DNA of 64,000 nucleotides from Blasia pusilla. Its lineage: Eukaryota. The translations under genes and the position numbers were made by a program. Positions 11,303 through 45,159 of the stretch are shown in pieces (positions within the stretch are counted from its first letter, which is position 1; each line of letters starts with the position of its first letter). A model generated the notes under the pieces. The model was not told where the DNA came from. It ran no database searches and saw only the letters and a list, made by a program, of their open reading frames with translations. The stretch covers positions 19,406,001 through 19,470,000 of the forward strand of contig CM114271.1 in NCBI GenBank assembly GCA_050084515.1, written 5' to 3'.

Positions 11303-11700
11303 TGTTGTGCACATACACATCGCTAGCCATATCCACACTACACAACACCAATCTTCCTAAAATATTAGTGGATCCATACACATACAAGAAATGAATCCAT
11401 CCATGTACATCAAAATAACACAACAAAATTTGAGTAAAAATGGCTCAGACGGCCAATTCCACTGTCAAATCTACATCGGCATATGGAGCCACATCCACTC
11501 TCTACTATGAGGGAATTCGGACACTAGCACCCTAGTTCCTACTACACACAAAGCAACAGAGGTGCTCTAAAGGCCCATATGAGAAAGATGGTTTGGTAAG
11601 ACCATCTCTCCCTCTCTTATAGCCTTCGAAAGAGCCAAAAGGCTCTTCCCCCAAAAATATCCTTCAAACGGTAACCTGCATGCACATATTATTGAGTTTA
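11303..11700 (-). mobile_element. Truncated 3' terminal repeat (B2 plus part of A2) of another copy of the element-A family, inverted
   Basis: The reverse complement aligns, diverged, to 27350-27705. Shared blocks include ggggaagagccttttggctctt, ctagggtgctag, gatgtagatt and gaagat.ggtgttgtgt. It starts at the family terminus tgttgtgcacatacacatcgcta. Confidence 0.8.
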
Positions 11701-12348: not shown

Positions 12349-13320
12349 TGGCAGTGTCCAGAGGAGGGTGTTAGGGTGTTAGGGCTCTTCAAAGGGATAA
12401 ACATATGATTAGCAACGGTATTGCAAGCGGGCATACGAATGCATCACTACCTTTATGTGGAGAGAGATGAGATCGCGCGGCGAGTATCATTACTTCATGT
12501 AGCGAGATTGGTCCATAGGTATCCTGAGTTGTTTCCGATATCTGCACTACGGGGATATCAGTATACACTACCCACCGACATCTCTTTGGTGGGGGCGCAT
12601 GATCTAGATAGAGTTGGCACCATTCATTTGGTGATTGTTGGATGGCCATGTCAGGGTCATTCATCAGCTGGCCGAGGGTTTGGATTGCAAGATCCGAGGT
12701 CATGGATGTTTTGGGAGATGTTGTAAGTAGTACGACACTTTTAGGAGAGTCAGACATGTTTTCTGGCGTACATCTTGAAGAACGTGCCGTTGTTGGGAGA
12801 CACTCGTGCACGTATGCTGACGAGTGTGCATCAAATGAGGTCTTGGTTGGGAATTGCTGTGTTGTTAGATGCAGCAAGAGTTGGATCACGCGCCCATCGT
12901 CCATGACTGTGGTGGACAAACCTGATACCATCAAAGGTACTGAGTCAAGCATACGATGGAGTCCACAGAGCACCACATCTCATAGTGGATGTTATTTTGG
13001 CCTCAGGGCGTCGATCTCAGGTGGTGACGCGGGATGATAGACTACCGTTGGCGATGGCCAATAGGATGGGGGAGTTGAGGGTAGCCTCACCTACGTTGGT
13101 GAGCTTCCCAACATCCCATACCTTTCGTCAAGGAGGGCCACGCATGATTTCGGAATGAGATAACCCAAGCATTGGAGGAGCCTAGAGCAGATGAGCGCGA
13201 GCGCTACGGGTACTACGGCGGTGCCAGGTATGACTGAGGCATCCCGGAGACAGGTTTTGGGGCAGGCAATGGACCTCAACTATCTCACATGGATAGTCAG
13301 CCTTGGTATGGCTGAGCAGA
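12349..13320 (+). pseudogene. C5 cytosine DNA methyltransferase domain (DNMT3/DRM-like) inside pol of element A, disrupted
   Basis: Motifs in order: RVLGLFKGI (I), YLYVE (II), TDIS (III), LVIVGWPCQG (IV, catalytic Cys at 12649), DPRSWMFWE (V), YILKNV (VI), AHRP*LWWTN (VIII), RRQVLGQAMD (X). Several in-frame stops. Confidence 0.9.
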
Positions 13321-13599
13321 GACGGATGCAAGAGCCATCCATGCTGTCACGCCCACGAGTTGGACCATTGCCTACAGGGTCTGTACAGGCATTGGTTGGG
13401 AACGGGACCAGGAGAGATAGGCACCCATGGACTTCCTGGGACGTCGTTTGAGCGGAGAGTGCAAAGGCGGCCAGAGTAGCACATGTTCATGTTTTGGATG
13501 TTTTGGTGTAGGAGGTCAGAGTGGAGTGGTTGTTGCGGAGGTGGCTAGGGTTGCTACATAGCAACCAAAGCCAGAGGTTAAGTCTTCTCCGAGGGAGGT

Positions 13600-15084
13600 C
13601 ATGATGGAGACTTGGGAGCCTGTAATAGGTCTCAAGTTGATAGGAGGAGAGCGACGGCGAGTTCATAGGTTTTTGAGAGGGCATGTCAGTTGTTTTGCCT
13701 TTAGTATGAGAGACTTGGGTACGCTGAAGGGTCTCGGGATACGAATTGAGTTGGCTAGTGATTCGCCAATCTTTCGTCGACCCTTACAGGTATTCTGATA
13801 TAGAGCGAGCCTTGATTCAGAGCAAGAGTCAAGACTTGTTGGAGGCAGGACTTGTGGAGTTATCACATGGGGAATATGCATCTGCCACAATCATGCCGAA
13901 AAAGAAGGATATGTATGGCAATTGGATGGATAGGCGGATGTGTGGAGATTACCATCCAATCAACCGACCAACGAGGTCAAATCGGTAGGCCATGCCGACT
14001 CATGAAGAGATCTTTGATGGGGTTGGGCATGCAAAGATCTTCAGTACTTTAGATCTCCGTGTTGGCTATCATCAACTTCCTATCAGGTTGGAGGACAAGG
14101 AGAAGACAACATTCTGGGGGATAGATCAATTTGGGAGAGATTGCTTGTATCAGTGGCGGTTCTTACCATTTGGGTTGAAGAACACGCCTGCGGAGTTTCA
14201 GAGAGTGATGGATAGGATTTTGGCTGGCTTGGATTTTGTATGATGTTACATACATGATATTCTTATCTTCAGTTCCATGGTTGAGGAGCATGAGCGACAC
14301 CTGGAAGAGGTGTTTCAGCGATTGCAGTTACATAGACTGAAGTTACATCAAGGCAAGAGCACATTCTTTCAAGAGCAGATTGAGTACTTGGGACACACCA
14401 TATACCTGAGTGGGTTAGGTGTTCAGTAGACAAAAGTCGATGCTATTGCGCAGATTCCACGCCCTACAGATGTGATTCGAGTCCGAGCGTTTCTTGGACT
14501 AGTGAACTTCTATCGACGGTATGTAAAGGGTTTTAGTGCGATCGCAAAGTCTTTGACCTTATTGAGGAGACTTGATCAGGTTTGGTTGTGGGGAGATGAT
14601 CAGGAGCGAGCATTTTAGGAGCTCAAGGATAGGTTGACGTCCTTACCCATTTTACAGAGACCATTACCCATTCCAATTACATACGGATTGGAGCATGTTG
14701 GGTCTAGGAGCAGTGCTTACTCAGAGGGATGACGAGGAGAGGAAGTTTGTTGTGGCTTACGCAAGCCGATTGAACAACATTGTAGAGGCAAAATACAACT
14801 CTTACAAGGGAGAGTGCTTGGCTATAGTGTGGGCCATGGCACATTTGATGTGTTATTTATTCGACAACCCTTTCACACTTATCATTGATCATCAACCGTT
14901 GAGGTGGTTGATGGAGTCCGACAAGCTTACAAGAAAGCTTGCCATGTGGGATCTATTACTACAGGAGTATGAGTTTGAGGTGGTTCATAGACAAGGTAGG
15001 CTGAGCCAGGCTGCGGATGGGTTTAGTCGTAACCCATGTCCGATTCAGAGAGACAACAGAGGAGCTCGATGGTACGGAGAGAGT
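13600..15084 (+). pseudogene. Ty3/Gypsy reverse transcriptase and RNase H of element A
   Basis: RRMCGDYHPIN, FSTLDLRVGYHQ, LPFGLKNTPAEFQRVMD, CYIHD (decayed YIDD). RNase H: TDWSMLGLGAVLTQ, VAYASR, ECLAIVWA, IDHQPLRWL. Confidence 0.95.
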
Positions 15085-15212
15085 TGTCGTGCGCATACAC
15101 ATCGCTACACAACATACATCGCTGTCACCGAACACACACACAAACACGCATGATCCCATGCTAACTCATGGCATCCAAACAACGAGACAAGAAGAACCAA
15201 AATATCTCCAAT
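15085..15212 (-). repeat. Element B repeat B2 (outer 3' end)
   Basis: Near-identical to 15728-15861, differing by (CA)n length and one substitution. Confidence 0.95.
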
Positions 15213-15725
15213 AAAGTAAGATCCAATCTCTCTCTCCACCATCTCACACCATAGCTCTCAAAGGTGTGCACTCTCTCTCATGTCAAACCAAACCCACTCT
15301 CCTAATGAGAGGCTTGGGTTACACTCACAAGGCAAGGTACCATAGCTCCGCCGCCTCATGCCAAGAGGTTCAACAAAGAGAGAATGAGCTCTCAAGCTCT
15401 CTATCCTTGAGGTATACCCCTCTCCTCTCCCAAGCTCTCTTCATGGTAACCTATTCTCCCAAGTCACCTCCTTGGCTCTTGACCTAATGTAGGAGGTCAA
15501 GGGCCACTTACCAAAAATAGTAAGTCGATCATATATTCAAAATGATACTTACCTAAAATAGTAAGTTACTCAATATGGTTCCAAATGAGCCGAAACGAAG
15601 GGGAAACCTGCTATCTCAGGTTTCCAAAGGCCTCAGCACGTCACCCTTGACCTACTGGGCATGTCCTCCACTACTCATGAAGGCGCTCTATTAGATCCCA
15701 CCGATCTATCCTAAAAGACGTGACA
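15212..15725 (-). repeat. Element B repeat A2
   Basis: Direct repeat of 24818-25339. A manual count gives about 14 substitutions, mostly transitions, plus a (CT)n length change. Confidence 0.95.
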
Positions 15726-15727
15726 GT

Positions 15728-15861
15728 TGTCGTGCGCATACACATCGCTACACAACATACATCGCTGTCACCGAACACACACACACACACAAACACGCAT
15801 GATCCCATGCTAACTCATGGCATCCAATCAACGAGACAAGAAGAACCAAAATATCTCCAAT
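15728..15861 (-). repeat. Element B repeat B1 (internal copy of the 3' terminus)
   Basis: Copy of 15085-15212, separated from A2 by 2 bp (+ strand gtgaca-GT-tgtcgtg at 15720-15734). Confidence 0.95.
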
Positions 15862-16039
15862 CGCCCCCCTAGCTGGTGGTTAGGTCCCTCTAACTCCAGA
15901 TAGCCATCTATCCCTACCTGCCATGACATACATCTCTCGGACGCTAAGAGCAAGAAGGCCGGGTGATCATGTGGCCCCATTGTTAGTCACCTCCTTGTCA
16001 TCCATGTCATAGACACAAGTCGGAATGTAGAACTACCTT

Positions 16040-17300
16040 TTATGTACATCTAGGACACATCCATCATCCCTGAAGAACCCTAGTGAGAGGTGGCGTCAAA
16101 CATGCCATATGCCATCCTCTCGAACACCCATCACAGACTAGTATCGTGGCCGCACCACAGGCAAAACCACACAACATACAACGCAAGCCTGCAGGAACTA
16201 CTACTAAGCTCGGATCTACTGTACCATCAATGTTAGGAAGGTGACATGGCGCACAATTACGCACATGGTCCTTCCATACCATACCATCGCGTCCCTCCAG
16301 CAAGAGAACACCCGATGGCAAAATGTCACGCACTCTCAGGATAGTGCGCCCTGCAGTCACATCCAACGTCGTCGGTGTTGTCTGCTGCAAATAGACATAA
16401 TCTCCCTGATGAAATCTCCGGATAGTTGGTCGATAACCACCACCTCGAATAGTCGTATACCTCAACGTATCCCGATGTTGTGCAATCGCCAAGTTCTCGA
16501 ACGCCATGGGCATCACTCTCGAAATAACTCACCCTCGAGAACATGCTCGCACCCATACATCCGGGTCATCAAGGTTCAGCACCTCACCAAAGATCTCGAC
16601 GAATGGCCGCAGGTAAATCGGCTCTCGCCATAAAGTAGCAAGTACGGTGAAAAAGACGCTAAGGATGCTCTCTGAATTGACCAGATCCCATCGCCAACCA
16701 TGGCAATCGGAGGTCCCAATCTCTAGGTGACCTCTTGCAAGCCATACTTGCGTAAACCCCTCTTCACCGTCTGCACGACTCTCTCCGCTAATCCATCCGC
16801 CTCAGGATGATCTCGCGAAGTTGTGCGGTGGTTGATCAGCGCCTGATCACACAAGGCCTGGAACTCACCGCGAAACTCGGTACCCTGGTCTGTCAACACC
16901 TCAGCTGGTGCGCCATAATGACTCAACACTCTGTCAAGGAAGGCATAAGCTACTCCCTCACTTGCTTTGTCAGGCAATGCAACCAACTCGATCCACTTCG
17001 AGAAGTGCTCGACCATCACCAACACATAACAACTGTGACACTCCGTCAAGGGCAAAGGTCCTGCAAAATCCAAACTCCATCTATACCCTAAGCCCATGAT
17101 CGGTAATGGATGCAACTTTGGAGTCGGAGCATTGAACGATGCTCGGACCCGATCACACACCATGCACCTGGCAACAAACTGCTGAACGTCAGTCTGCATG
17201 CCTCGCCACCAATACTGAATCTGGAGCAAGCTATACGTCCGCTTCACCCCAAAGTGACCCAACTCCTCGTGGGCATCGCACTAGTCGTGCTCTCTGCAAA
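16040..17300 (-). pseudogene. DDE integrase with C-terminal PHD finger, element B
   Basis: HHCC (HEELGHFG...CMVC), WSLDFAGP, VLTDQGTEF, HPEADGLAERVV. Then a C4HC3 pattern CMLC...VCDGCSRGWHMACLTPPL...WMCPRC, ending at the TAA at 16040. Confidence 0.93.
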
Positions 17301-17599
17301 GGATGCGGCACTACGCGCACTCGCCATCCTCCCAAACCCTCAAAACATGTGTCCCCTCCCAACGGAACCGTCGGCCCATTTGAGAGGATCCGATCCCGCT
17401 CTCTAGCATCCATGGTGCTCGCAAGGCTGCCAGTACAAAGGTACTCTAAGACTACTCCATCATCATGAATATCTCGGCCACTTGTCGTATCCTCACTGGC
17501 TTCGGGATCTAAAGACTCTCCACTAGACCTCGCCATCAAAGTCTCCACACTCTGGCTCTCCATAGCCAACATGCCTAAATAGGGTCGACGCGTGCCATC

Positions 17600-19087
17600 C
17601 TGGCACCGACTCCTCATCACTCTCTCCATGCCATCGAGCTCCAGTCGCATCTCGCTGACTCGGGCATGGGTTACGACTCAACCCATCTGCATCCTGGTTG
17701 AGCGTTCCAGGTCTATGTACCACCTGAAAATCATACTCCTGCAACAACAGAGCCCATCTCGCAAGCTTCCCTGTAAGCTTGTCGGACTCCATCAACCACT
17801 TCGGTGGTTGATGATCGATGATGATGGTAAAGGGGTTGCCGAATAAGTAACACCTGAAATGCACGATGACCACACCGCAGCCCAAGCACTCACCCTCATA
17901 CGAGCCGCATTTGCCTCTGCAGCGTTGTTCGAGCGGCAAGCGTAAGCCACCACAAACTCTCACCTCATAATCATGTTGGGTGAGCACCGCCCAAGCCCCA
18001 ACATGCTCCAATGCGGTGCAATTGGAAAGGACGCCCGATCGGTCTCCTCAAGATGGGTGCGGACGTCAACTCGCCCTGAGCAATCTGAAATGCTCGCTCC
18101 CGCTCATCCCCAGTGCCACTCGTGATCCACCTTGGTGAGCAAGGTCACCGCTTTTAATCGAATCGAATCCCTTGACGATCGCCGATAGAAGTTCGCCAAT
18201 CCCATGAATGCGCCGAACACGACTCACATCGAGGGCGTGGAATGCGTGAGATAGCCTCTACCTTTGTCTCCTTTGAACACCAAGGCCCCGGGTATATCGT
18301 ATGATCCAAGTACTCAATCTGGTCGTAGAAGAACTTGCACTTGCCTGGATGTAGCTTCAGCCCATGTAATTGCAATCGTCAAAACACCTCCTCTAGATGT
18401 TGCTCATGCTCCTCAACCGTGGCGCTAAAGACTACGATGTCATCAATATAACACCTAGCAAAATCCAGACCAGCCAAGATCCTATCCATGACCCTCTAAA
18501 ACTCAGCCGGGGCATTCTTTAACCCAAATGGTAAGAACCGCCACTGGTACAAACAATCCTTCCCATGAGGATCGATGCCCCAAAATGCCGTCTTCTTTTG
18601 TCCTCCAACTGATAGGCAAGCGATGGTATCCACTCATAAATCAATGAATCAAGACCTTTGCGTGACCAATCGCATCAAAGATCTCCTCAGGGGTGGGCAT
18701 GGCATACCTATCGGACTTCGTCTGCCGATTGATAGGTCGGTAATCCCCACACATCCGCCTATCCGTCCAGTTGCCATGCACATCCTTCTTGGCGGGCATG
18801 ACAGTGGCAGATGCATACTCCCCATGCGACATCTCCACTAGTCCTGCTCTGACCAAGTCTTGGCTCCTACTATGAATCAGAGCCCTCTCCATATCACTGT
18901 ACCTGTAGGGTCTTCGGAAGATCGGCATATCACTCGACAACTCAATGCGGATCCCCGGTCCCTTCAGCGTACCCAAATCCTCCATGCTAAACGCAAAGCA
19001 GCTCCTATAACTCCTGAGGAACTGATGTATTCGGCGCCGCTCTCCTCCTGTCAACTTAGGGCCCATATCTGGCTCCCAAGTCTCCAT
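17600..19087 (-). pseudogene. Reverse transcriptase and RNase H, element B (frameshifted)
   Basis: RRMCGDYRPIN, YAMPTPEEIFD, LPFGLKNAPAEF, RCYIDDIVVF (about 18430-18455), IDHQPPKWL, GKLARWALLLQEYDF. Confidence 0.93.
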
Positions 19088-19409
19088 CGTGACTACAGTA
19101 GGACTCTCCGGCGCGGGTATCGGTGGTTGCTATGGTGCAACCCCATCTCGGCCGCTCTCCTGCAGCCAACTGCAAACTCTGATCTCCTCCACGTGCAGTG
19201 CCCGAAACCACGCACGATGTTGTGGCTATCATCTCCTTGCGTACCTTCAAAACATTCCAAGAAGTCCAAGGGTGTCTCTCCCGATCTCCCCTGGTGCGTA
19301 GATCTCCTCGGGTCTCGCTTGACCCACGCCTCCACCGTCTCGGTAGGCATGGGGCTCACCAACGCAACCGCTGTGATCTGTCGCGATCTCATACAACGCT
19401 GCTCAGCCA

Positions 19410-20370
19410 CTCCCAAGCTGAGGATCCATGTCAAGCTGTTCAAGTCCATCGCCTGACCCAAGACATGGCGCCGTGATGCCTCTAACATTGATGGTATTGC
19501 CGTCACTCCTGTGGGAAATCCCATCGCTCGCTCTCTCTCGTCGGCGTTGGGCTCCACCAACCGCTGAACCTGGTCATCCCAAACCAAGCCAGGACCGGCC
19601 TCCTTGTATGCATAGGAAGCGGAAAACTCACAACGTGGGCAAGGCGCCGCGGCCTCGCTACCTGTTGACCACGATCGGCGGTGGTCGATCATCGTGCCTC
19701 ACCGCCTCGATCGCGACCTGGATCGAGAATGGAATCCACTAACAAAGGGAGGGCGCTCCACTCTGATACGCCCTCCATAACACCGCATGGGGCACCAAGT
19801 TGGTCCACCATAGACGCGGGCGATGGGCTCTAGAACCTACACTCGCCGCATCCAAGAACACTGCTGGGCCGATCAGCACGCACTTTTTGATGAGCACTCG
19901 TCACGACTCGTGACTCGAGTCTCTAAGATCGGCACATTCTCTAGAATGTAGGTGGAGAACGAGGCCGGGTGCTCCTGAATCGCCGTAAGACCCTCAACAT
20001 CTCCCAAAACAACCTGGGAGTGTCAGCCAACCCGCTGCCTCGTCCATCACTCGATTGGCCCTAACATGGCCAACCGCAATGACCAAATCAATGGTCCCTA
20101 CCGCTCTAAGTCTTGCGCCCAACAACAAAATATCCTCGGTGAGGGAACTCTGGTACTCAGATCGCGGACCTTGCACAATAAGTCGGGAAAACGAGGGCGT
20201 AATTGCGCCCATGTCGTCGAGTGAGACGCGCCTTGCAACATCATCACTCTCCACATACAAATGGCCAGACTCGCACTCCTGCCTGCAAAAAAAGCCTAAC
20301 CCGGTGCTAATCCTCCAAAGAGATCTAACACTCGAATACCCTCCTCCGGGGTACACCACACAATGGGTGT
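19410..20370 (-). pseudogene. C5 cytosine DNA methyltransferase domain, element B (frameshifted)
   Basis: GIRVLDLFGG-ISTGL, LYVESD, IDLVIA-GWPC*G, LFWEML, TYILENVP (intact ENV), GSRAHRPRLWWTN (intact RxR), ERERAMGFP, RRHVLGQAMD. Confidence 0.9.
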
Positions 20371-20719
20371 AGTATCCAAGGGTGTCATCATAGCACTCCC
20401 CGCTACCTTGGGTTCCTCAGACCCGTCACGCTTTGGTGCAAACGCCTCGCTCCACGCGATGCCTGCGACGCAAGATCGCCAATCGTTGAAGCTCCTCAAT
20501 CGAGCCCCACAGCGACACCTCTCCTCCACGGAATGATGCAGCTACCATAACACTCCTCTCCTTTTAAATGTCAGGAACATGAGTATCCTCTGCATGGACA
20601 TGTCCCTCAATCAAATCACTAGGCCAAGTGATGGCACTGCTAAATCCGCTAAGGTCGCCATCTCTCTGGCCGCGTTTTCGATCATCGCACTGTGAATCGA
20701 GCGGGTAATGAGCTAAGGC

Positions 20720-21100
20720 GCCCATCACCGATCGCCATCTGGTGCAGCAGGGGCCGACTCCTCCCAAGTAATCAGGAAAACCCCATCGGGTATAACACGC
20801 TCCACCAACCAAGACGTCGTAGGACTCAAGATCGTCACTATCGCCTTGGCGCGCACCACGGACTCATATGTGGGATGTCCCGGGCAAATCCTCACCACGA
20901 CCTCTTGTCGGATGATATACTGTGTGGTACTCGCTCCATCCAAGGATGTCTGTATCCGAAATGGACAACACTCCACATCGGCTCCCGTCAAGCCCAATCC
21001 TCTGAATGACGCTTTCCCCAACATCAAGGGTTGCGCTCCTGAATCCAACAAGACGCGCTACGGACTAAAAGCTCTACCTCCAGGACTCACCAACTGGAAG
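20720..21100 (-). pseudogene. Retroviral-type aspartic protease, element B
   Basis: LLDSGAQPLMLG contains the D-S-G active site. The position is between gag and DNMT. Confidence 0.85.
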
Positions 21101-21989
21101 ACCTCTCCTCGGTTATCCAGCAACACAACACCAGGAGAAGCCATGGCACGCTCTATCGCGGGTCTAGCGGGCATCTCCGCCATCCTAGCGACCCGCACCG
21201 CCATGAATCGACGTGGGCGGCCCGAGCATCCGCCAGGCGGGTCCATCACTTCCTCTGCAATCACCTCTGAACGTGATGCAGGAACTCCAACTCTGCGCTC
21301 ACATAGTGAAGCGGCCAGCCGAAAAGCCTCGGCAGGCGTACCTCCCAACGTCACAACATCGGAAGCAGAAAATAAAGGAGTGCGGTACACAACGGTGGCC
21401 GCCCCCAACAACGTGCTCGACACATGCCCCTCCTGAGCATTGACAATAGGAGTCGTCGCACTAGCTTCTCCCATCGCCCTCCATGCTTGCACACCAACAA
21501 CATTACCAACTCTCCAGGAACTTTGATGAGGGCCCATCGATGGGGTCCTCATCGCTTCGGACAACGTGAAAGATTGAGGAAGCCTAGTCTGTCTACTGGC
21601 TTCCCCTCGCTGTGGATCCAACTCTGTGGCTGCTCCACGCATCACAACTACGGCGGCCTCCATCTGGGCAACCCCGCACATCCATCCAAGATCCTCCAGA
21701 TTTCTGGCTGCTCCATATGATGTCGATGCCACGGATCCGGCATCGGGTAACCTCAATGTCATAGCGGCAATCTGCTCCAGTAGTGTTGTATCGAGCGACC
21801 ATCCCGCCCTCACGTCCGGCATCTCCTCGGCGCGTCTAGGTGGTGGTACTCTACCTCCTCCACGGCAGCTCCACCACCCTGCCGGGCAACTCCGGCTCCT
21901 CGCCCCCAACGGGACCACGAGCACGATCTCTAGGCCCACCCGGACCGGCTTTCGCTCTAGTGCCCCTCTCCGGCCCTCGGTCCAGGACG

Positions 21990-23030
21990 TAACTCAGGAT
22001 GTAAACTAAAACACCTGGCGCGTGTATGACCATACCCCGACAATAGTCACACGATAACCTCCTGGTGCAAAGCACCATCTCCTCCTCTATCTTTGAGGCA
22101 CACGTCCATGACCGACGAGTGCAATCGGCGATGATGGGCTCCACCACATGACCAACAAGTAATAGTAGGCGGCTGCTGTTGAGACGATATGAAAGCGCAG
22201 TCTCGTGGCACGGCCTCTCGGTATCCTCCTCGAGCTCGTGGTGCCCTGATGTCGACCTATCTCGAGTCACGTTGCCGCAGGTGGTGCAAACAATCGTAAT
22301 CGCTTGCTCTCGCCAGAACCCATGGTGGCTACGCCTCCTCCGCCATGTTGCGCTCAATGTTCTCGGCGGTCCTAAAACATCTCTCAATGTAGGGGAGGTG
22401 TTCAAAAGAAGCACCCCCTCCCGCACCCGTGTCCGCAGGTCCGGTCCAACATCGCATACCATGTTGGATAGCTGAGCCTCTGTCACCCCCCCGAGTGGCG
22501 TTGATCAACCGGCGCAAGCGAGTGTAAGCCTCACGCAAACTCTCACCCGAGCGCCCTCGGAAGTCGTGGATGCTCCGCAACTTCTCCGTCCGTACCCCTC
22601 GTAGCTCGCCCTCAACTCAGCAAGAAAGAACTCAACCACGAGGGTTGAACTGGGATGAACCCGACTAGACGGTGCAATGCTCCCGTCGGCGAGTGATCCC
22701 TCCTAAAACGTCACTAGTGGAAGAGGCGTAGCCTCTCCCGACTCCTCCTCCTCATCCGGGAACGGCTCCGCCCATGACACATAATATGGGTCATAGTAGA
22801 GCCTCCACGCCTCGATCTCACATGCATATCTCTCGAGAGAACTCATGGTAATCGCCCATGGGCCCCCTCTAAATCTTTGGAACATACCGTTCCATGTCAA
22901 ACGGGTTGAACTCTCTAGAGTTCTTGGCCCCTACCGGGAGTCGCACCAACTCCTAAACTCGCTATAAAATCGTGCAACTCAATCGTGCCCCGCACTGAAA
23001 ACCTACGCGGTCCTCTACCCGGTCGTCCAT
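21990..23030 (-). pseudogene. Gag with zinc knuckle(s), element B (frameshifted)
   Basis: LRSIHDF...GESLREAYTRLRRLI resembles a gag major homology region. CDYCRGYGHTRARC (CX2CX4HX4C) is restored by adding one G at about 22040. Homologous to 42448-43520. Confidence 0.75.
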
Positions 23031-24817
23031 CTCGTACGCCCAAGTGGTAGGACCACTCACAATGTGTGGCGATGTGCTCACAAACTCCTCTACACCCTCC
23101 CCCTTGTCTGACGATGACACAGAAGGAGGTCGAGATGGTCCCTCACGTGGAGACCCTCAAAACCTCGCGCCACTCCGCGTAAAACCTCTAGAGCTACTCT
23201 CGGGTTCACCACCTCGCCTCTCAAAGTCCCAAACAGACTCCGTGATGACCCTCGTGCCCCTCTCACCCAATCACTCTGAACCTCGTGAGGAATCCCTCAA
23301 TCACTCATCCCAAACATGCGGCACTCGATCTACACTCTCTCCCGAGGCGTGTAACGCGGCAACACGCGGCGTGGTGCGGCAAATCGACCAGGCTATCATC
23401 TCATCGACAACCTACCCTCAACTCCGGACATCCCACACAGGTCTATGTCCCCTAAACCACATACATAAATGATGCTCTCAGCATCCACACACCCAATATC
23501 CCCAAATAAATCCCAGAATCCCTCACACGTGCTGGGTAAAGGACCAGAATGGGTAACCTGAACACATGTCGATGTCGCTCCTCAGCAACTGCAAATATTG
23601 ACCCCAACTCGATCGTGGAGACAACTCCTCCAATCAGCAAGTCATACTCCTCCCGTACTGATGCTGCTCAAAACTCCTCGACTCCAGCGGAACAGTGTGG
23701 CGTTGCAGGCGGCACGAAACGGCTACGAACGGCACGGCCCTCGTTGGAGGGATGCGGCACTCGGCGGCATACCCTCCTCAATCAATAATAATCCCACACT
23801 CTGCTCCACAATGACGGTGCGACTCCGCGATCGAGATAGTGCGTTGCGGCCACGAGCGGCACGGCGCGGCAATCGGCGGCGCGGGTTACGGCGTCACGCA
23901 GACGATACTCGATCGTCGTCGAGCGGCTACCAATCACAACATAGCAGCATGAAATCAAAACTCAAACACCATAACCAGAGGTCATCTGCCTTCACTGGTT
24001 GATGAAGAAACTGCGATGACGGTGGTGGCCAAAACAAAGTACGTGGTGGCGACGCAAGTCAAGGAATCAACGAACATCATGGAAGACCCTCCACTCCGTA
24101 ATGGCGGCAATGGTACCCAAAGGGTGGACAATGGACGGTGGACCCTTGACAGTGATGGTTGACCACTGATGGTGACGGCCGACCGATGACGGTGACAGTT
24201 GACCGTCGACCGTTGACGGTGATTATGATGGCGACGGCCGCCGCCGGTGTGGCGGCTGATTTAGGGTTTGCACGATTTAACCCTAAAAATCGCCTAGCAA
24301 TGGCAGCCTTACAAGATTGCCCATAACTTTTTGCTCGCAACTCCAAATTGTGCACTATTTGTTGCACAGCGTGCACGGCTTCACGATCTACGCTACCATC
24401 AAAAAATATTTAGAATCAAAAATTTCAGTAAAAACTGACGGGGACTTTTATAAAGCCCAATGTCTCTTTCTCCTACACAAAATTTGGCAGCGCTCCCGCG
24501 CTGATTTCTCCCAACGAAAATGTAACATCTGTAAAAATACAAGTCAACAAGCTACATGGTGCTCCCGAGAGCACCAGCATGGGGCAACCCGCCCCCATAC
24601 TCAATCCCTATCAGAAATTGGGCAGCGCTTCCGCGCGCCACTCTTCCACACGAAAAATCGGCAAATGCAAAGAGTAATGAAAGCTGCCCTTGCTCTGGTG
24701 AGCACTCCCATGAGCCGCTGAACGGGGAACACGGTCCCCAACCTGCAAAAACAGCGAGTGACCAGCGAGCTCCCCCATGAAGCTCTCTCACTGTCTCATT
24801 CTCTCATTCTCTCTTTG

Positions 24818-25339
24818 TAAAGTAAGATCCAATCTCTCTCTCCATCATCTCACACCATAGCTCTCAAAGGTGTGCACTCTCTCTCATGTCAAACCAAACC
24901 CACTCTCCTAATGAGAGGCTTGGGTTACACTCACAAGGCAAGGTACCATAGCTCCGCCGCCTCATGCCAAGAGGTTCAACAAAGAGAGAATGAGCTCTCA
25001 AGCTCTCTCTCTCTCTCTCTTTGAGGTATACCCCTCTCCTCTCTCAAGCTCTCTCCATGGTAACCTATTCTCCCAAGTCACCTCCTTGGCTCTTGACCTG
25101 ATGTAGGAGGTCAAGGGCCACTTACCAAAAATAGTAAGTCGATCATATACTCAAAATGGTACTTACCTAAAATAGTAAGTTCTTCAATATGGCTCCAAAT
25201 GAGCCGAAACGAAGGAGAAACCTGCTATCTCAGGTTTCCAAGGGCCTCAGCACGTCACCCTCGACCTATTGGGCATGTCCTCCACTACTCATGAAGGCGC
25301 TCTATTAGATCCCACCGATCTATCCTAAAAGACGTGACA
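24818..25339 (-). repeat. Element B repeat A1 (5' end)
   Basis: Direct repeat of 15212-15725. It is not followed by a B repeat; the next element-sense sequence is caaagagagaatgag. Confidence 0.95.
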
Positions 25340-25343
25340 GAGT

Positions 25344-27010: not shown

Positions 27011-27705
27011 TGTGTGGATCCACCCGTGTGTGGGGAAGATCGGTGTTGTGTGGTGTAGATATGACCAACAATGTATGTTGTGTAGCGATATGTATGCACA
27101 CGACAGTTGTCACATCTGAGTAGCCGATAGGCCGAGATCTATCGTGGATAGGGCGTAGGAGCCAGCAGAGTGTCTTGAGTGTAACTTTGTCCCACGGTAT
27201 TGAATGAGGTTGAGGATAGGTCCGTTGTGTCAGGAACGTTGTTTTTTACAACTTCCTTGTTGAGGTCTTTCACAACCGGGTGACTTGTTGACCAGGTCAC
27301 CCGCCCTTGGTAACATGTGCGCGTAGGTTACCAGGAGAATAGCTATTTATAGGGGAAGAGCCTTTTGGCTCTTCCCAACCCTATATAAGAGAGGAAGATG
27401 GCTTTCCTAAGCCATCTTTCTCATGTTGGGCCGTTGGAGTACCTCTCTTGTATGTGTGTGAGATAGGACTAGGGTGCTAGCATTCGGATTCCTTGATAGC
27501 TCAAGGTGGTCGAGGCTCGATATGCCAATGTAGATTGAGGAGTGGAGTTTTAGGCCGGGTGTGCCGTTTTTACTATTTGTTATTTTAGTTGTGTGATCTC
27601 CATGTATATGTATGAGTTGATTTATGTACATGTGTGGATCCATCCGTGTGTGGGGTAGATGTAACCAGCGATGTATGTTAGGTAGCGATACGTTTGCGCA
27701 TAACA
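27011..27705 (+). repeat. Element A 3' end: B1 (27011-27105), GT spacer, A2 (27108-27630), B2 (27631-27705)
   Basis: 'tgtgtggatcca.ccgtgtgtgggg.agat...atgtatgtt..gtagcgata.gt.tgc.ca..aca' occurs twice. The junction cacgaca-GT-tgtcac lies at 27099-27113. Confidence 0.85.
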
Positions 27706-30043: not shown

Positions 30044-30400
30044 GATCCTAAGCTCAAGCGCCGCTAAGCCACCTCGTCATCTTAAGCTAAACCCCGGCGC
30101 AAAGCTGATCCTAATCCCAACCCTAAACCCATGATATGCCGCGGGCTGAAGCACATCGCAATGGCATTCCCCAAGCTCATCATTACCGTAAGCTCGTCGC
30201 GAAGCGACTCGTTAATAATAATGATCCTAAGCTCAAGCGCCCCCAAGCCACTCGTCATCTTATCCTCGACCCCGGCGCGAAGCTGATCCTAATCCCAACC
30301 CTAAACCCATGATATGCCGAGGGCTGAAGCACATCGCAATGGCATTCCTCAAGCTCATCGTTACCGTAAGCTCGTCGCGAAGCGACTCGTTAATAATAAT
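30044..30400. repeat. Tandem duplication, 2 x ~179 bp
   Basis: 'gatcctaagctcaagcgcc...gcgaagcgactcgttaataataat' at 30044-30222 and 30223-30400. Confidence 0.95.
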
Positions 30401-34079: not shown

Positions 34080-35900
34080 AACCTCGTTCTCTCAAAAAAT
34101 ATAGTTAAGAATCTGAGTTAAAAACTCTTAAGCCAAGATTTTGCAAGGTGCATGTAATTTTTCCATACCAAGTCCTTGGAATTTGCGTAAAACTCTCTGT
34201 AACTTGCATATGTAGAACGAAAACTCTGAATCTTGATATCTAGATGGTTTAATTATGTACAACTCTTCGTGTATATCGTCCTTCGATAAAATATTCATGA
34301 CATCCACTTTGTACTTATTGCATCTACAACTACTATTTTTTAGTCGTCATCTTTATAACAAAGCTAAATGTCTCTTTGTAGTCGATATCATATTATTGTA
34401 CATAGCCTTAACTAATAAGTTGGTTTTGTATTTGTTCACAATTCTATCTTGATTGGGCTTGATCTTATAAATCCATATGCAACTAATAGCTTTTTTACCA
34501 AAAGGATATATCAACAAGCTGTTAAGTCCCTTGGCATGGTAATATAAGAAGCTCTTCTTTCATAGCTTCAATCCATTTGACCTTAGATACAACTTCTTCA
34601 AAAGAACTTGGTTCTTGTTCTTGAAGAGAAGTCACAATATATGCGGGATATATTCCAAGATATCTATGATTTATAATTAAATGAACAAGATATATGAATC
34701 TACTTGATCTATTAGGTTTTTGTTAAAAAATAGACATCTTTAACATTTGACTTGAGCTTTGACTAATATCATCAGATTGAATACGCAATCCTCCCAACCA
34801 TGGATTGATAAATTTATTTGAAGAGTCTAAGACATCTTCTAATCTTGCACTAGAACTTGGGAGATTTCTTGGAAAAGTCTATTGATTTGTAGTAATATGC
34901 TCCGCCTTAACAAACATATCGAGAGGCAAAAGATGTTCGGATGAAGCATGTTATGACTTCAACTCATAAAAACAAAAGATCATGACTAATAATAAGCTAT
35001 ATAGATGATGAAATAAAGTACTTTTATCTTTTGGTTTTATCAACAAAGCCAATGAAGATACGTCTCTAAGATTGGGATTCGACTTTTCAAGTCTTAATTT
35101 CAATAGAAATGTAAGCAAAACAAAAATAACCAAAGACTTTCAAACATGAGAAGTAAGGGTTTACTACCAACCAAGACTTCAAATGGAGTCTTGTCATGAA
35201 TTCTTGCTATGTAAGTTTTATTGATTAGAAAGATTACACAAATTAAAAAATTTATTCAATACATGATGGGCATGTTCTTCTTATAGATCAAAGCGTGGGT
35301 CTTCTTCCAATGTTTCCATTCTTGTGTTTAACCATCCCATTTTGTGGTGGGGTGTAATGACTTATGAATAACTTAGGATGTCATTGTGATAAGAGAGAAG
35401 AATATCTCTCATCAAAATTTGTTGAGAGATACTTTTCTTCCTGTGTATATAGTAATTTAAGAATGTGTTTCTCACTCTACTTCTATATAAAAAATTGGAA
35501 TTTTTGGAATACCAAAAATAATTCTAACTCATATTTTAAATAATATACCCAAATCTATCTCGAGAGTCATTAATAAATTAAATGAAGTATCGATAATTAC
35601 TAAGACTATATTGTGATGTTGTCCACTGATAATTTTGAATCAACTCTAATATTTTGGATGCTCTTCTTCTTTGCTTTATAAATGGGAATCTAGCATATTT
35701 TCCAAACTAACTTGTTCTGGTTTATGATAGAATAAATTTGGGTATATGGGATGGTTTATGGATCTTGATATCTAGGTTTTAGATGATGAAAAAAATTGCA
35801 ATTTTTGAAGGTTCATATACCCAAATTTCTTCTATCACACATTAAGATATGTGACTTATTTGCTAGTTTGATTTTATCTTGTTCTTTGAATCTATGATAT
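34080..35900 (-). mobile_element. Highly decayed Ty1/Copia pol remnant (integrase then RT)
   Basis: Minus-strand translation gives IWVYYLK and YTPPQNGMVKHKN (integrase), then GKKAISCIWIYKIK...KYKTNLLVK...DIDYKETF and VDVMNILSKDDIHEELYI (Copia RT). INT precedes RT. Confidence 0.75.
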
Positions 35901-36317
35901 AGAAACATGCAGTATGAACATTATGCTAGATCTAGTTCCTTTGAGTATCATAGTCTAGTGATCCATCATTTCAATGAAATAACCATTAGGGGTAAAAAAT
36001 TATGTGATATCCCATTGTATTATGTGAATAATAGAATATGAGGGTTATTCACTCAATCTTTTGATTAACAAGGATATTTTTTTAACGATCATCCGTGAAG
36101 TAAGAAGAAGGCATAAATGGGAGGGACATAGAGAGAATTTCAAAAAACATATATTTGGTTTCATCTTGTTGCATTGGAACTTTAGGCATAAGCATAATAC
36201 AATGTTGTGTATCATATAATATAATCACTATTGCAATAACTTTTACATGCTCCAGATTCAAGGTTGCACGGAAACGGACAAATCCGGACATGACCACGGA
36301 CATGGAAGACCAGACAC

Positions 36318-36860
36318 GTGGAGCATCAAATCACATGACCTCACAAGCTAAATGGTTTAGTGAAAGATCTTGCAATTGTGCTCACAGGAGATGACACTCA
36401 ACATCATATCACGCATATCGGTAAAGTTCCAATAGCATCATATGGTTTTTGTGCTCTTGGAAATGTTCTCTATGTTCCTACCATTGCAAAAAACTTAATC
36501 TCTGTATGAGAGATAGTAGAACAAGGTTATCAAGTGAAGTTTAACACAAATGGTTGTTTCATTGAAACAATAGATGATTAGACTACGTTAGCCAAAGGAA
36601 CTAGATCAGGCCGAATATTTAAATTAGATGTTTCTATGCTAGAGAATCAAACAACAATAATGGTCAAACTGACCAACAAGTCACAAATCAAAATATGTGG
36701 CATAAGAGCATAAGATGTATGAATCTTCAAAGATTACAGTCTTTAATCATCTAATCTGTTTATAGGACTTCCTAAATTAGCAAGTCGTGCTACGTTAGAG
36801 ATAGGTCATGGTTGCTAATTTGGAAAACAAGCTAGATTTGTTTTTCCAAACCAAGGTAGA
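36318..36860 (+). mobile_element. Decayed Ty1/Copia protease and pre-integrase fragment
   Basis: GASNHMTSQAKWF, NVLYVPTIAKNLISV, QGYQVKF..NGCFI, GRIFKL, WHK. Confidence 0.7.
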
Positions 36861-36909: not shown

Positions 36910-37730
36910 CAGAGTGACCGCGCGCGCTCTAATAGCGGGCCACCGGTGCGGGCTCTAATGAAGGGTGCGGGCCTCAGTCTCGACGTGGGCTGCAAGCGAG
37001 CACGACATGTGGGCTAATTTGCGGGCCCTAAAGTCCGTGTGCAAGCTTGTTGCGAGCCTTGGAGCTTGCACGCATACTAGGATGCGGGCCCTGAAGCCCG
37101 CGTATGGGCTGCTTGCGGGCCGCCGAGCCTGCGTACGGGCTAGATCATGGGCCCTCAAGCCCGCGTACGGGCTTGTTCCAGGCCCTAGAGCTCGGATGTG
37201 GGCCCTGAAGCCCACATCCAGGCTAATTACGAGCTAGGTCGCGAGCTGGTTGGGGGCCCTAGGGTTGGGCCATGAAGCCCACATCCAGTTTGATTACAGG
37301 CCTCCGAGCTTGCAAGCGGCCTACGGTGTGGGCCCTTGAGCCCGCATGCGGTCTGCTTGCGGACCTAGCAGCACGTATACGGGCTGGGGTGCAGGCCCTA
37401 AAGCCATGCCTCCTTGTAGGCCTGGGAGCGCGCGCATGAGCTCGTTGCGGGCCTTGGAGCGTGCTTGCAGGCTAGGTTGTGGGTTGCTTGCAGGCTAGGG
37501 TAGGGGCTGGTTGCGGGCCCAAGAGCTTGCATGCGGACTATATCATGAGCTTGATGCGGGCTAGGGTGCGGGCTGCTTGCGGGCCTGAGAGCATGCATAC
37601 GGACTACTGCGCAGGCTCGCATGCAGGCCATCAAGCCCGTGCGGACTCTAAGGCCCGTAGTGCAGGTTTTGCGCGGGCTCGCAGGCCTTGCAACCCGCAT
37701 GCGGGCTAGGGGTTGTGGGCGGGCCCTGTG
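36910..37730. repeat. GC-rich degenerate tandem repeat block (about 50-65 bp units)
   Basis: Recurrent 'gggccc(t)gaagccc(g/a)c' and 'gcttgcgggcc' units, with a sharp GC contrast to the AT-rich flanks. Confidence 0.75.
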
Positions 37731-39946: not shown

Positions 39947-40664
39947 TATCACGTCTTTTAGGATAGATCGGTAAGATCTAGTAGAACGCCTTTGCGAGTA
40001 GTGGAGGACAGACTCAAGAGGTTGAGGATGACCTACTGAGGCCCCGGGAAACATGAGAGAGCAGGTTTTCCCTTCGTTTCGGCTCATTTGGAGCCATATT
40101 GAGGAACTTACTATTTTAGGTAAGTACCATTTTGAGTATATGGTCAACTTTATATTTTTGGAAAGTGGCCTTTGACCTCCTACATCAGGTCAAGAGCCAA
40201 GGAAGTGACTTGGGAGCATAGGTTATCATGGAGAGAGCTTGGGAGAGGGAAGGGGTATACCTCAAGGAGAGAGAGCTTGAGAGCTCATTCTCTCTTTGCT
40301 GAACCTTTTGACATGGGGCGGCAGAGTTATGGTCCCTTGCCTTGTGAGTGTAACCCAAGCCTCTCATTAGGAGAGTAGGTTTGATTTGACATTGAGAGAG
40401 ATATGTGAGAGTGCACACATGTGAGAACTATGGTGTTATGAGAGAGATCCGATCTTATTTTACAAAGAGAGAATGAGTGAGTGAGAGAGCTTCATGGGGG
40501 AGCTCGCTAGTTGCTTGATGTTTGGCGCAAGTTTGGGGACCGTGTTCCCCGCCTCATGGCTCATGGGAGTGCTAACCAGAGCAAGCGCCGTGCAAGTTTG
40601 TTGTTTTGCTTTGCTGATGTTTTGTACGGGAGAATGGCACACGGAAGCGCTACCCAATTTTTGA

Positions 40665-41108
40665 TAGAAATTGAGTGTGAGGGCGGATTTCTCCATGCTG
40701 GTGCTCTTGGAAGCACCATGTAGCTTGTTGATTTGTGTTCTCATAGATTTTATATTTTCTTTGGGAGAAATCAACGTTGAAGCGCTCCCAAATTTTATGT
40801 AGGAGAAAGAGACATTGGGCTTTACGACAATCCTTGTCAGTTTTTACAATAATGTCCGATTCAAAATATTTTTTGACGTTGTTGTAGAAATTGAGTGTGA
40901 GGGCGGATTGCTCCATGCTGGTGCTCTTGGAAGCACCATGTAGCTTGATGATTTGTGTTCTCATAGGTTTTACATTTTCTTTGGGAGAAATCAACGTTGA
41001 AGCGCTGCCAAATTTTATGTAGGAGAAAGAGATATTGGGCTTTACGACAATCCTTGTCAATTTTTATAGTAATGTCCGATTCAAAATATTTTTTGACGTT
41101 GTTGTAGA
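40665..41108. repeat. Tandem duplication, 2 x 220 bp, in the leader of element C
   Basis: 'tagaaattgagtgtgagggcggatt...ttttgacgttgttg' at 40665 and 40885. The segment is single-copy in element B (about 24395-24615). Confidence 0.95.
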
Positions 41109-42447
41109 TGGTAAAGTTGTGCATGTTTTGCAATAGACAATGTGCAATTTGGAGTTGCGAGCAAAACGTTATGATCAATCTTGCAAAATTTCCATTGGTA
41201 GGAAATTTGTAGGGTTAAATTGATCAAACCCTAAACTAGCCGCCGCGTCGGCGGCGGCCGTCGCCGTCATAGTCACTGTCAATGGTCAATCATCACTGTT
41301 AATGGTCCACCATCCACCATCCACCGTCGGCCTCCGCCGCTGCCGCCTAGGGTTGCTCAGAGCCGCGTTTGACGGTTGTCCACCCTTGGTTGCCATTTTC
41401 GCCATTACGGAGTGGAGGGTCCTCCACAACGACTGTTGATTCTATGACTTGTGCCACCACCACATACTTTTTTTTGTCCGCCATTGTAATCATAGTTTCG
41501 TCATCAACTTGTGATGGTAGGTGATCTCGGGGGTTATGGTGTTTGAGTTTTCATTCCATGCTGCTATGTTGTGATTGGTAGCCGCTCAACGACGATCGAG
41601 TACCGTACCGTGACGCCCGTAGCTGCAACGCGCCACCGATTGCCATACCATGCTGCTCATGGCCGCACCCCACCATCTCAATCATGGAGCTGCTTCTTCA
41701 CTAAGAAGAAGAGCGTGTGAGTTTTTGATTGAGGAGGGTATGCCGCCGAGTGCCGCATTGGACTGCTGGACTTGCACCGCATATCAAGGAGGTTTGAGCA
41801 ACGTCAGTACGAGAGGAATACGACTTGCTGATTGGAGGAGTTTTCTTCATGACTAAGTTGGGGTCGAGATTTGTAGTTGCCGAGGAGCGACATCGACATT
41901 ATTGGTAGGTTACCCATTTTGGTCTCTTACCCTACACGTGTGAGGAATTTTTGAGTATTGGGAAGTTATTTGGGATATTGGGTTCCGTGCTGATGTTGAG
42001 AGCATCAATGATGTATGGGTTTAGGGGACATTGACCTATGTGGGATGTCTAGAGTTGAGGATGGTTTGTCGATGAGATGATAGATCAGTTGATTTGCCGG
42101 ACCATGCCGCTTGTTGCCGCACAACACACATCTTAGAGAGAGAATGTAGATTGAGTGCCGTATGTTTAGTTTTAGTGATTGAGGGATTACTTGCAAGATT
42201 GAGAGTGATCGTGTGAGAGGGGCACGAGGGCCATCACGGCGTCCTTTTGGGATTTTGAGAGGCAAGGTAGTGGACCTGAGAGTAGCTCTCGAGGGTTTAC
42301 CTGAAGTGGTGCGAGGTTTGGAGGGTCTCCATGTGAGAGACCACCTCGATCTCCTTCTGTGTCAACTTCAGACAAGAAGAGCATGTAGAGGAGTGTGTTA
42401 GTGATCCACCGTACATATTGAGTGGTCCTACAAGTTGGGCATACGAG

Positions 42448-43520
42448 ATGGACGACCGGGGTAGAGGACCGCGTAGGTTTTCGGGTTCTGTAGGTACTAT
42501 ACAGCTTCACGACTTCATTGCAGAGTTTAGGAGTTGGTATGACTCACAACGGGCTAGAAACTCTAGAGAGTCCAACCCGTTTACAACATGGAATGGTATA
42601 TTCCAGCATTTAGAGGGGGCTTCCATGGACGATTACCATGAGTTCTCTCAGAGATATGCCCAAGAGATTGAGGCATGGCGACTCTACTATGATCCACTCT
42701 ATGTGTCATGGATAGAGCCGTTCCCAGATGAGGAGGAGGAGTCAGGAGAGGCTTCTTCTTCTTCCACCATTGATGTTTTAGGAGGGATAACTCGCACTGG
42801 AGCAATTGCACCGTCCATTCGGGTTCTTCCGAGGTTCAACCTCGTGGCTGAGTTCTTTGCTAAGTTGAGGGCCAGCTACCAGGAGGTACGGCCGGAGAAG
42901 TTGCGGAGCATCCACGAATTCCAGAGGCGCCTTGGTGAGAGTTTATGTGAGGCTTACACTTTCTTGTGCCGGTTGATCAACGTCACTCACGGGATGACAA
43001 AGGCTCAGGCTATCCAATCCTGGTACCCGATATTGGAGCGGACCCTACGGACACGGATGCGAGAGGGGGACTTCTTATGAACATCTCCCCTACGTTGAGA
43101 GATGTTTTTAGGACCGCCAAGAACATTGAGCGCAACATGGTCGAGGAGAGCGTAGCCACCATGGGTTTTGGGCGAGAGCACTCACGATTGTGTGCACCAT
43201 CAATGCTGCAACCGCCTACAATTACTTGTTGGTCCTCCGAGATAGGTTGACTGTGGCACCACGAGCTCAGGGAGGATCCCGGGAGGTCGTGCCACAGAGA
43301 CCTGCGCCTTCATTTACGGCTCAACAGCAACCGCTTAAGATTACTTGTCGATCATGTAGTGGAGCCCATCATTAGCATGATTGCACTCGTTAGGGTCATG
43401 GACGTGTGCCTCAGGATGGCGGAGGAGATGGTGTTGCACTAGGAGGTTATCAGTGTGATTACTGTCAGAGATATGGTTATACACGCGCGAGGTGTTTTGT
43501 GTACACCTTGAGTTATGTCC
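42448..43520 (+). pseudogene. Gag with two zinc knuckles, element C
   Basis: MDDRGRGPRRFSG...LHDFIAEFRSW...FQRRLGESLCEAY. Knuckles CRSCSGAHH*HDC (about 43345) and CDYCQRYGYTRARC (about 43454). Confidence 0.75.
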
Positions 43521-44399
43521 GGACCGAGGGCCAGAGAGGGCACCAAAGCAAGTAGCCGGTCGGGTGGGCCTAAAGATCGTGCACCAGGTGGTCCTGTTGG
43601 GGGACGAGGAGCTGGAGTTTCCGGACACGTTGATGGAGCTGCCCATGGAGGAGGTAGAGTCCCACCACCTAGACGCGTCGAGGGAGATGCAAGGCGTGAG
43701 GTTGGGATGGCTCCTCAGATACAACAGCTACAAGAGCAGATTTCTGCTATGGCATTGAGGTTACTCGATGCCATATCCGTGGCATCGACATCATATGGAG
43801 CACCTACAGATATGGTTGGATGTGGGGAGTTGCCCAGATGGAGGCCGCCGTAGTATGACACGTGGAGCAGCCATAGAGTTGGATCCACAGCGAGGGGAAA
43901 GCCAGGAAACAGACCAGGCTTCCTTAGTCTTTCACATTGACCGAGGCGATGAGGACCCCATTGATGGGTCTTGATAAGAATTTCCGAAGAGTTGGTGATG
44001 TTATTGGTGTGCAGGAAAGGAGGACAATGGGAGAAACAAGTTGGACGACTCCCATTGGAGATGCTCAGGAGGAGCATGTGTTGAGTACGATGTTGGGGGC
44101 GGCCACGATGGTGTACCTTGCTCCGCTATTTTCTACTTCCAATGTTATGACATTGGGAGCTACGTCCGCCGAGTTGTTCCGGCTGGCCGCTATGGAATGT
44201 GAGCATGAAGTGGAGTTGGAGTTCCTACATCACGTTCAGAGATGATTGCAGAGGAGGTGATGGACCTGCCCTTGGAGCGGATGCTCAGGCCGTCCACGTC
44301 ACATTCATGGCTGGCTGCGGCTACTAGGATGGCGGAGATGCCGGCTAGACCCGCGATAGAGCATGCCATTGCTTCTCCTCGTGTTGTGTTGCTGGATAA

Positions 44400-44790
44400 T
44401 TGGGAAGAGGTCTTCCAGTTGGTGAGTCGTGGAGGTAGAGCTTTTAGTTCGTATTGCGGCTTGTTGGATTCAATTGTGCAACCCTTGATATTGGGAAAAG
44501 CATCATTGAGAGGATTGGGCTTGACGAGAGCCGATGAGGAGCGTTGTCCATTTCAGATACAGACATCCTTGGATGGAGCAAGTACCACATAGTACATCAT
44601 CCGACAGGAGGTTGTGGTGAGGATTCGCCCAGGACATCCTACAGATGAGTCCGTGGTGCGAGCCAAGGCGATAATGACTGATGTAGAGTCCTACGACGTT
44701 TTGGTTGGTGGAGCAGTGTTATATGCGATGGGGTTTTCCCTGGATTATTGGGAGGAGTCAACGTCCTACAGACGAGGATGGCAGTCAAGT
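44400..44790 (+). pseudogene. Aspartic protease, element C
   Basis: LLDSIVQPLILGK (decayed DSG) followed by SYDVLVGGAVL. Confidence 0.8.
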
Positions 44791-45159
44791 GATGGTTGCC
44801 TTAGCTCATTATCCGTTCAATTCACAGGTGTAGTGATCAAGCGATGGCTAGGAGAGATGGCGACATTAGTAGCATTTAGCAATGCCATCATTTGGCCTAG
44901 TGATTTGATTGAGGGACATGTCCATGCAAAGGATACTCCCGTTCCTGACATTTCTATGGAGAGGAGTGTCATGGTAGTCGCATCAGTCCGTGGAGGAGAG
45001 GTGTCGCTTTAGGACTCGACTGAGGAGCTTTGACGCTTAGCCACTGAGCATGTGCAAATTGCATGGAGCAAGACATTTGCACTAGAGTGTGATGGGTCAG
45101 AGGAACCCCAGGTAGCCAGGAGTATTGCTATGATCACTGTGGACACCCCCTTGATTGTG

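Follow-up and report, generated by a model that had tools for sequence, protein, structure and literature searches.

Why would a retroelement carry its own right and left termini abutted in its interior, two base pairs apart? The question is raised by the window analysed here, a 64,000-nucleotide stretch of DNA from Blasia pusilla. Retroviruses and LTR retrotransposons are held to integrate linear cDNA via its trimmed ends. In element B of the window, an internal junction at 15719–15734 (minus strand) reads CACGACA-AC-TGTCACG, joining a right-end motif that closes in CA and a left-end motif that opens in TG across a 2-bp spacer (15726–15727, minus strand, AC in sense). Its left half matches the right terminus of the element (15085) at every base, as its right half does the left terminus (25339). 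Element A, representing a second family, has its junction at 27099–27114 (plus strand), which reads CACGACA-GT-TGTCACA with the spacer GT at 27106–27107.

Self-comparison of the window gave the layout of element B, which occupies 15085–25339 on the minus strand in the order A1-coding-B1-NN-A2-B2, with TG...CA ends and the 4-bp target-site duplication GAGT on either side (15081–15084 and 25340–25343, plus strand). It is inserted into element A, being nested in the linker between RNase H and integrase of this family-A element (15081–25343). Repeats A1 (24819–25339) and B2 (15085–15212) form the left and right ends of the integrated element, B1 (15728–15861) and A2 (15213–15725) flank the internal spacer, and A2 and B2 meet at a seam of the blunt type (15208–15220; all minus strand), the proposed join of two cDNA ends. 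In element A, A2 and B2 together cover 27108–27705 (plus strand), the seam lying at 27587/27588 with one extra A. Element C (39947–46364, plus strand) is the 5' part of another family-B copy, comprising A1, partial coding sequence and a primer-binding site at 40462–40477. The window further holds remnant right ends of related elements (11303–11691 and 54866–54886, both minus strand), as well as tandem repeats of about 63, 77, 178 and 220 bp and one 218-bp inverted pair (37014–37708, 2271–2623, 30044–30400, 40665–41108 and 35779–36754).

The sequence-only reading of this DNA had placed a CA-NN-TG junction at both positions, which we confirmed by reading the two sequences and by searching the genome (a 390-Mb assembly of 26 contigs, of which the nine largest listed measure 14–69 Mb). 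A pattern with a free gap of 5–30 nt over the junction gave 611 matches and its reversed control none, and the junction had equal length, with a 2-bp spacer, in 97 of the 100 matches listed among these 611; in view of both results, it is not a product of chance. The spacer of these 97 was AC in 53, GT in 12, GC in 11, AT in 10 and another dinucleotide in 11 (a hand count, like that of the seams below, over the first 100 matches listed, all on one contig, C1). When 30 free-gap loci were aligned, the 29 of standard length showed 72–100% conservation in the flanking columns vs 59% and 62% in the two spacer columns, and decay in the flanks fell at methylation-prone sites. Metagenomes yielded 80 related loci with 45–82% identity to the query, several of which are the same copy in different assemblies and thus not all independent; 61 of the 66 listed had at least 500 bases downstream. 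The junction was found in 30 of these 61, with a 2-bp gap in all 30 (GC 14, AC 6, AT 5, GT 3, other 2). In 26 loci, B was followed by other sequence, a pattern that short-read collapse of B1 and B2 could cause, and five were unreadable. These relatives represent two further families, and a search of viral contigs returned 59 pattern matches and no relatives. The junction is therefore real, abundant and conserved across families. The earlier claim that its spacer length is conserved stood up to this check, a variable length having been named there as evidence against it. The spacer bases, which were said to differ, do not do so freely: a purine-pyrimidine dinucleotide occupied 86 of the 97 listed genome junctions and 28 of the 30 metagenome junctions.

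Pfam searches recovered RVT_1, RT_RNaseH, Integrase_H2C2 and rve in that order, together with a PHD finger and a C5-methyltransferase. In element B, the coding sequence is decayed and comprises a protease-like and C5 DNA-methyltransferase-like region (19096–21057, minus strand) and a region for reverse transcriptase, RNase H, integrase (H2C2, rve) and PHD finger (16067–19129, minus strand). The catalytic integrase residues D442, D502 and E537 are invariant in an alignment of 17 proteins, and the protease is evident as a motif in the window element and as a Pfam match in homolog P0003. A C5 DNA-methyltransferase-like domain lies between protease and reverse transcriptase in both families (19096–20541, minus strand; 12409–13448, plus strand). 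This domain within pol scored above the PF00145 cut-off in two copies, one per family, and is 45% identical to the Klebsormidium nitens protein P0044. No tyrosine recombinase was matched in the six long frames of one copy or among the Pfam domains of the 120 homologs listed, and no chromodomain (Chromo) in the same six frames, the last domain of the frame being the PHD finger. Homologs include proteins of Klebsormidium, Closterium, Chlamydomonas and Tetraselmis. In a quick RNase H plus integrase tree of 38 rows, the query and the Klebsormidium proteins fell, not as sisters, into one 32-row group (SH-aLRT 94) that also holds chlorophyte proteins. The pol order PR-RT-RH-INT with a DDE integrase and the TG...CA termini with a 4-bp duplication are those of Ty3/gypsy elements. 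What we did not find is a pair of complete, identical terminal LTRs with a primer site after the first CA and a polypurine tract (PPT) before the second TG, because the repeats are split, the tract precedes B1, the primer site follows A1 and the CA/TG pair is internal. Judged by its sequence, the element is a Ty3/gypsy retrotransposon of the Gypsy-DNMT3/PHD group with a DDE integrase.

Target-site duplications were found well beyond the window copy. For family B, 35 upstream stretches were fetched, of which 23 had both ends, eight had no A1 in range and four no B2 end; the 4-bp duplication was exact in 18 of the 23 copies and carried one mismatch in five, at varied targets. Seven family-A copies, from 16 stretches, had six exact duplications and one near one, and among six full-length metagenome copies the duplication was exact in four, near in one and absent in one. 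Within 24 copies, A1 and A2 differed by 0–5% and B1 and B2 by 0–8%. Lineage variants were mostly common to both repeats of a copy (for example, A303 in both repeats seven times and in one repeat once; B18 in both five times and in one once). Together with the duplications, these shared variants indicate that the split layout is itself the transposing unit and is renewed in each cycle by DDE-type insertion. One family alone exceeds 1,000 copies in the 390-Mb genome. Shorter A-coding-B units gave 98 matches, vs 478 for units that continue into NN-TG under an equally strict pattern; of 20 that were inspected, 12 proved real, corresponding to roughly 15% of copies. Twelve of their left ends were looked for and eight found, with seven exact duplications and one near one. 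Such units could be one-LTR-circle insertions or recombinants between B1 and B2. We also noted odd products (L035/L096, L019/L020, L165, L101, L102), among them an A that leads into about six leader repeats and on to B starting at its position 8, a tandem spaced at 9.6 kb, B-GC-B without A and, in L101 and L102, an extra B-NN-A-B unit each.

Where reverse transcription starts can be read from the priming signals. A G-rich purine tract stands directly before B1 in every family read (in element B at 15862–15871, minus strand, a putative PPT). On the other side, the bases adjoining the 3' side of A1, a putative primer-binding site (24803–24818, minus strand), form the reverse complement of an internal segment of A, which in element B is a 16-mer in A1 (24979–24994, minus strand) that would represent the RNA 5' end and self-primer. 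The complement extends over 16 nt in family B and 14 nt in family A; in the two metagenome families, the best copies have 17 and 15 nt. Its sequence differs among the four families, that is, the two partners covary, and control 30-mers from the same elements reached a complement of at most 11 nt (n = 297, 286, 267 and 251; 1,101 in total). In other copies, the self-primer matches have decayed to 6–11 nt. The self-primer stretch starts 26–32 nt behind a TATA-like motif in each family and 36 nt behind it in A1 of the window copy; A2 of element B holds a self-primer copy at 15373–15388 with the motif 28 nt upstream, and element A a TATA at 27382 and the self-primer 14-mer at 27413–27426. The predicted fold of the RNA 5' end closed the 16-bp stem (z = −2.75). 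No tRNA gene was found in the 64-kb window, and the site after A1 is without the TGG of a tRNA primer site. The same arrangement has been described for self-priming of the Tf1 type in the portions of the sources available to us (10.1101/2022.12.06.519325; PMC6317226).

Transcription was compared with RNA-seq data over 15213–16800, using three runs of one study (6–12% of each run, with most reads only 90–95% alike) and one contig set. Among the collections listed as containing this sequence, none was registered as RNA. Sense transcription passed through the purine tract, B1, the junction and A. No start or end peak was called on 15213–16800, which neither supports nor refutes an RNA 5' end at the self-primer. 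Reads crossing the A2/B2 seam numbered 11, 9 and 8 in the three runs. In addition, 51–104 reads per run switched to other sequence exactly at the start of B1 (15861), which suggests that another family combines this tract with a B of its own.

From the positions of the priming signals and standard retroelement logic, the cDNA is expected to start at the first base of B and to end at the last base of A. The LTR of reverse transcription would therefore be B-NN-A and the product B0-NN-A1-coding-B1-NN-A2. In both LTRs of this product, the CA/TG pair would be buried at a depth of about 130 bp. We consider it probable that the integrase opens the 5' copy of the encoded junction while the cDNA ends are sealed, the attachment sites having moved from the cDNA ends into the LTR. 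In such a cycle, the RNA would start inside A1, and its 5' end would very likely fold onto the site just after A1 and prime the minus strand as in Tf1. The purine tract before B1 would, with similar likelihood, prime the plus strand, and ordinary reverse transcription should then yield the product given above. At the 5' junction, the integrase would nick each strand after its CA. Across a 2-bp spacer, both resulting ends would carry a 3' CA-OH and a 5' overhang of 2 nt, as does the product of 3' processing, and this equivalence may be the reason that the spacer measures exactly two bases. Foamy-virus integrase, as far as the accessible part of the report goes, cuts the palindromic LTR-LTR junction after CA on both strands in vitro and leaves a 2-nt 5' overhang (PMC1180852). 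The opened ends would be inserted, and the true cDNA ends, the end of A2 and the start of B0, would be sealed to form the A2|B2 seam, in a 2-LTR circle ahead of integration or by repair afterwards. B0 would become B2, and the 3' junction would survive as the internal junction observed today. What argues against this cycle is that the cDNA would hold a pair of junctions of the same local sequence, of which just the 5' one is used; the simplest guess is that the 5' junction is the first to become double-stranded. Of the junction sequence itself, we note that it contains CG and CHG sites, and marking of one junction would be a speculative source of asymmetry.

Because the inserted form corresponds to the cDNA product with B0 moved to the right end, the A2|B2 seam is expected to be a join of two cDNA ends. 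Of 1,499 seams, the first 100 listed comprised 71 blunt ones, 19 that retained one base of the primer site, six that retained 2–16 bases, one with two extra bases and three of other kinds; one retained primer-site stretch ended exactly at the limit of the 16-nt complement. Length variants were present in 28 of 100 seams vs, among junctions that are inherited, 3 of 100 NN junctions and 3 of 87 junctions between A1 and the primer site (Fisher P 8e-7 and 3e-6). Bases of the purine tract were retained at the seam in 3 of 20 loci, two of the three being duplicates of one locus. On a tree of 57 loci (three of 60 left out), seam state required nine changes vs 9.8 when shuffled, and a control site five vs 18.4. 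This tree is poorly resolved, with 8 of 54 branches starred, and the control site is itself a column of its alignment. The spacer likewise does not follow the tree (18 changes vs 17.0 shuffled), though the model says that it is inherited; since methylation decay makes homoplasy, this comparison is uninformative. Given the weak tree, the control column and the behaviour of the spacer, the tree test is only supporting. According to these data, the seam looks like a join of true cDNA ends.

We then weighed the internal cut against other routes to the same layout. With the same priming, reverse transcriptase might halt at the junction and a template jump might move B to the right end. The resulting linear A...B cDNA would have two surplus bases on either side, which the integrase would trim in the usual way. 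This is close to one option of the sequence-only reading, namely that the junction templates both ends, of which it holds true only that both integrated ends derive from a copy of the junction. Such a scheme accounts for the absence of permuted insertions and still makes the seam anew in each cycle, but it needs two precise stops at the same 2 bp, where there is no purine tract and we found no primer-site-like sequence. The priming signals lie at the other ends of B and A, and spacer length varies in just 3 of the 100 matches listed, making this explanation unlikely in our view. Less probable still is a cycle of the DIRS/Ngaro type. In it, the transcript would extend from A1 into B2, the seam would be handed down from parent to daughter, and the junction would serve as template for a B2-A1 circle junction. 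Split-repeat DIRS elements have the same repeat order, as described in the part of the source consulted (PMC5890265), and some RNA reads do cross the seam. However, minus-strand synthesis that begins after A1 could not include B2 of the RNA, the seams hold graded pieces of primer-binding site and purine tract, and seam states are dispersed over the tree.

If the intermediate were a closed, symmetric 2-LTR circle that can open at either junction, the extra B-NN-A-B units of L101 and L102 and the A-coding-B units with duplications would fit, but about half of all insertions should then be permuted. Permuted insertions had also been predicted from the sequence, and we looked for them in vain. The pattern seam-B-NN-A (A|B-NN-A) had eight matches vs 1,113 for the canonical tract-B-NN-A, the two patterns having different anchors. 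None of the eight ran on into the leader; six were chance flanks and two were extra repeat units. Likewise, none of eight copies without a junction had a permuted left end. Four of 60 junction loci continued from A into leader, three of them after the coding region (a tandem or long seam retention) and the fourth with partial B only and nothing recognisable upstream. The lack of permuted insertions makes the symmetric circle unlikely; it is already largely refuted, and we give it very little weight. A tyrosine recombinase as the integrating enzyme could be suspected, as could an artefact of nesting or of post-insertion recombination, since the repeat order is that of recombinase elements and the window copy is nested. 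Against both stand the 4-bp duplications at unrelated targets, the DDE integrase, the lack of a recombinase match in six long frames of one copy, and the same layout in more than 1,000 copies of at least four families; on the duplications and copy counts we reject them, regarding either as next to impossible.

Opening at an encoded junction is thus the reading that we prefer. The other option raised from the sequence, that the junction is the site opened by the integrase in an over-long or circular cDNA, gains indirect support from priming signals that place the cDNA termini at the first base of B and the last base of A, away from the CA/TG ends, and from a seam that behaves like their join, the cleavage itself being what we infer. 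The case for cutting at an internal junction is built on the sequences of the copies, the priming signals and the seam, with a putative RNA 5' end at the self-primer. On balance, and somewhat more cautiously, we favour the broader view that this green-plant and algal Ty3/gypsy lineage integrates mainly through an encoded internal CA-NN-TG, its insert being a circular permutation of the reverse transcript.

If this is true, junction cutting is the standard route of an abundant element whose cDNA ends no longer serve as integrase substrate. Each inserted copy would preserve a cDNA end-joint recording primer removal, and the circle-junction question becomes testable in a natural system. An early avian model of retroviral integration proceeded from such a circle junction. 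The element would be a natural case of this old model, which would explain a DIRS-like layout in a DDE element. LTR finders that seek two matching terminal LTRs should miss or misread such elements despite their more than 1,000 copies. In the literature, we found no account of the junction, the self-primer, the permutation or the mechanism; Repbase entries, theses, subscription papers, figures and supplements may bear on novelty. The layout appears to have been noted once before, in the KnitGypsy-Dnmt3 legend, and integration through an encoded internal junction appears to be undescribed.

Closest to the window element is KnitGypsy-Dnmt3 of Klebsormidium nitens, for which a Fig. 4 legend gives a DIRS repeat structure with Gypsy domains (de Mendoza et al. 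2018, PMC5890265). Both combine Gypsy domains and a C5-methyltransferase in pol with a DIRS-like repeat order, the order being taken from that legend. A K. nitens protein is 51% identical to the window element over RNase H and integrase and 45% over the methyltransferase, and this partial protein has no PHD match, unlike the window element. Compared here by description and protein, KnitGypsy-Dnmt3 differs in that the consulted text of PMC5890265 mentions no junction, target duplication, primer or mechanism. A 2026 preprint, in its accessible part, mentions streptophyte Gypsy-DNMT3 in passing, and the available text of the Chlamydomonas v6 paper reports an active Gypsy-7a_cRei of C. reinhardtii with a PHD finger (PMC9940879). 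The legend of its Fig. 6A refers to drawn 'LTR subparts', yet to a left and right LTR differing by 8 bp. Tf1/sushi and Tcn1 chromoviruses share the DDE integrase and a self-primer at the RNA 5' end that pairs with a site adjoining the LTR (PMC6317226; 10.1101/2022.12.06.519325, as far as consulted), and the 14–17 nt complements of our four families agree with such self-priming by sequence, the RNA 5' end being putative. In those elements, according to the same portions, the primer site follows the terminal CA of the LTR, the cDNA ends are the attachment sites and a chromodomain is present, whereas in the window element a T-run precedes the primer site, the CA/TG pair lies inside the LTR and the frame closes with a PHD finger. 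The proposed activity has a counterpart in foamy-virus and HIV-1 integrases, which as a side activity cleave both strands of the palindromic 2-LTR junction behind CA (PMC1180852; PMC4372172, in the parts available). There the junction arises by ligation of cDNA ends on a side route, whereas in the window element it is encoded inside the LTR and would serve the main route.

The order A-coding-B-A-B is shared with split-direct-repeat DIRS elements (PAT, TOC1, Ngaro, VIPER; SymbioDIRS-Dnmt3), which use a tyrosine recombinase, whereas the window element has a DDE integrase, TG/CA ends and 4-bp duplications. To our knowledge, these DIRS elements make no target-site duplication. In IS3, IS30 and related insertion sequences, a DDE enzyme acts on abutted ends with a short fixed spacer. 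These are DNA-only elements whose junction is made anew by the transposase. The window element, by comparison, is a retroelement with an inherited junction.
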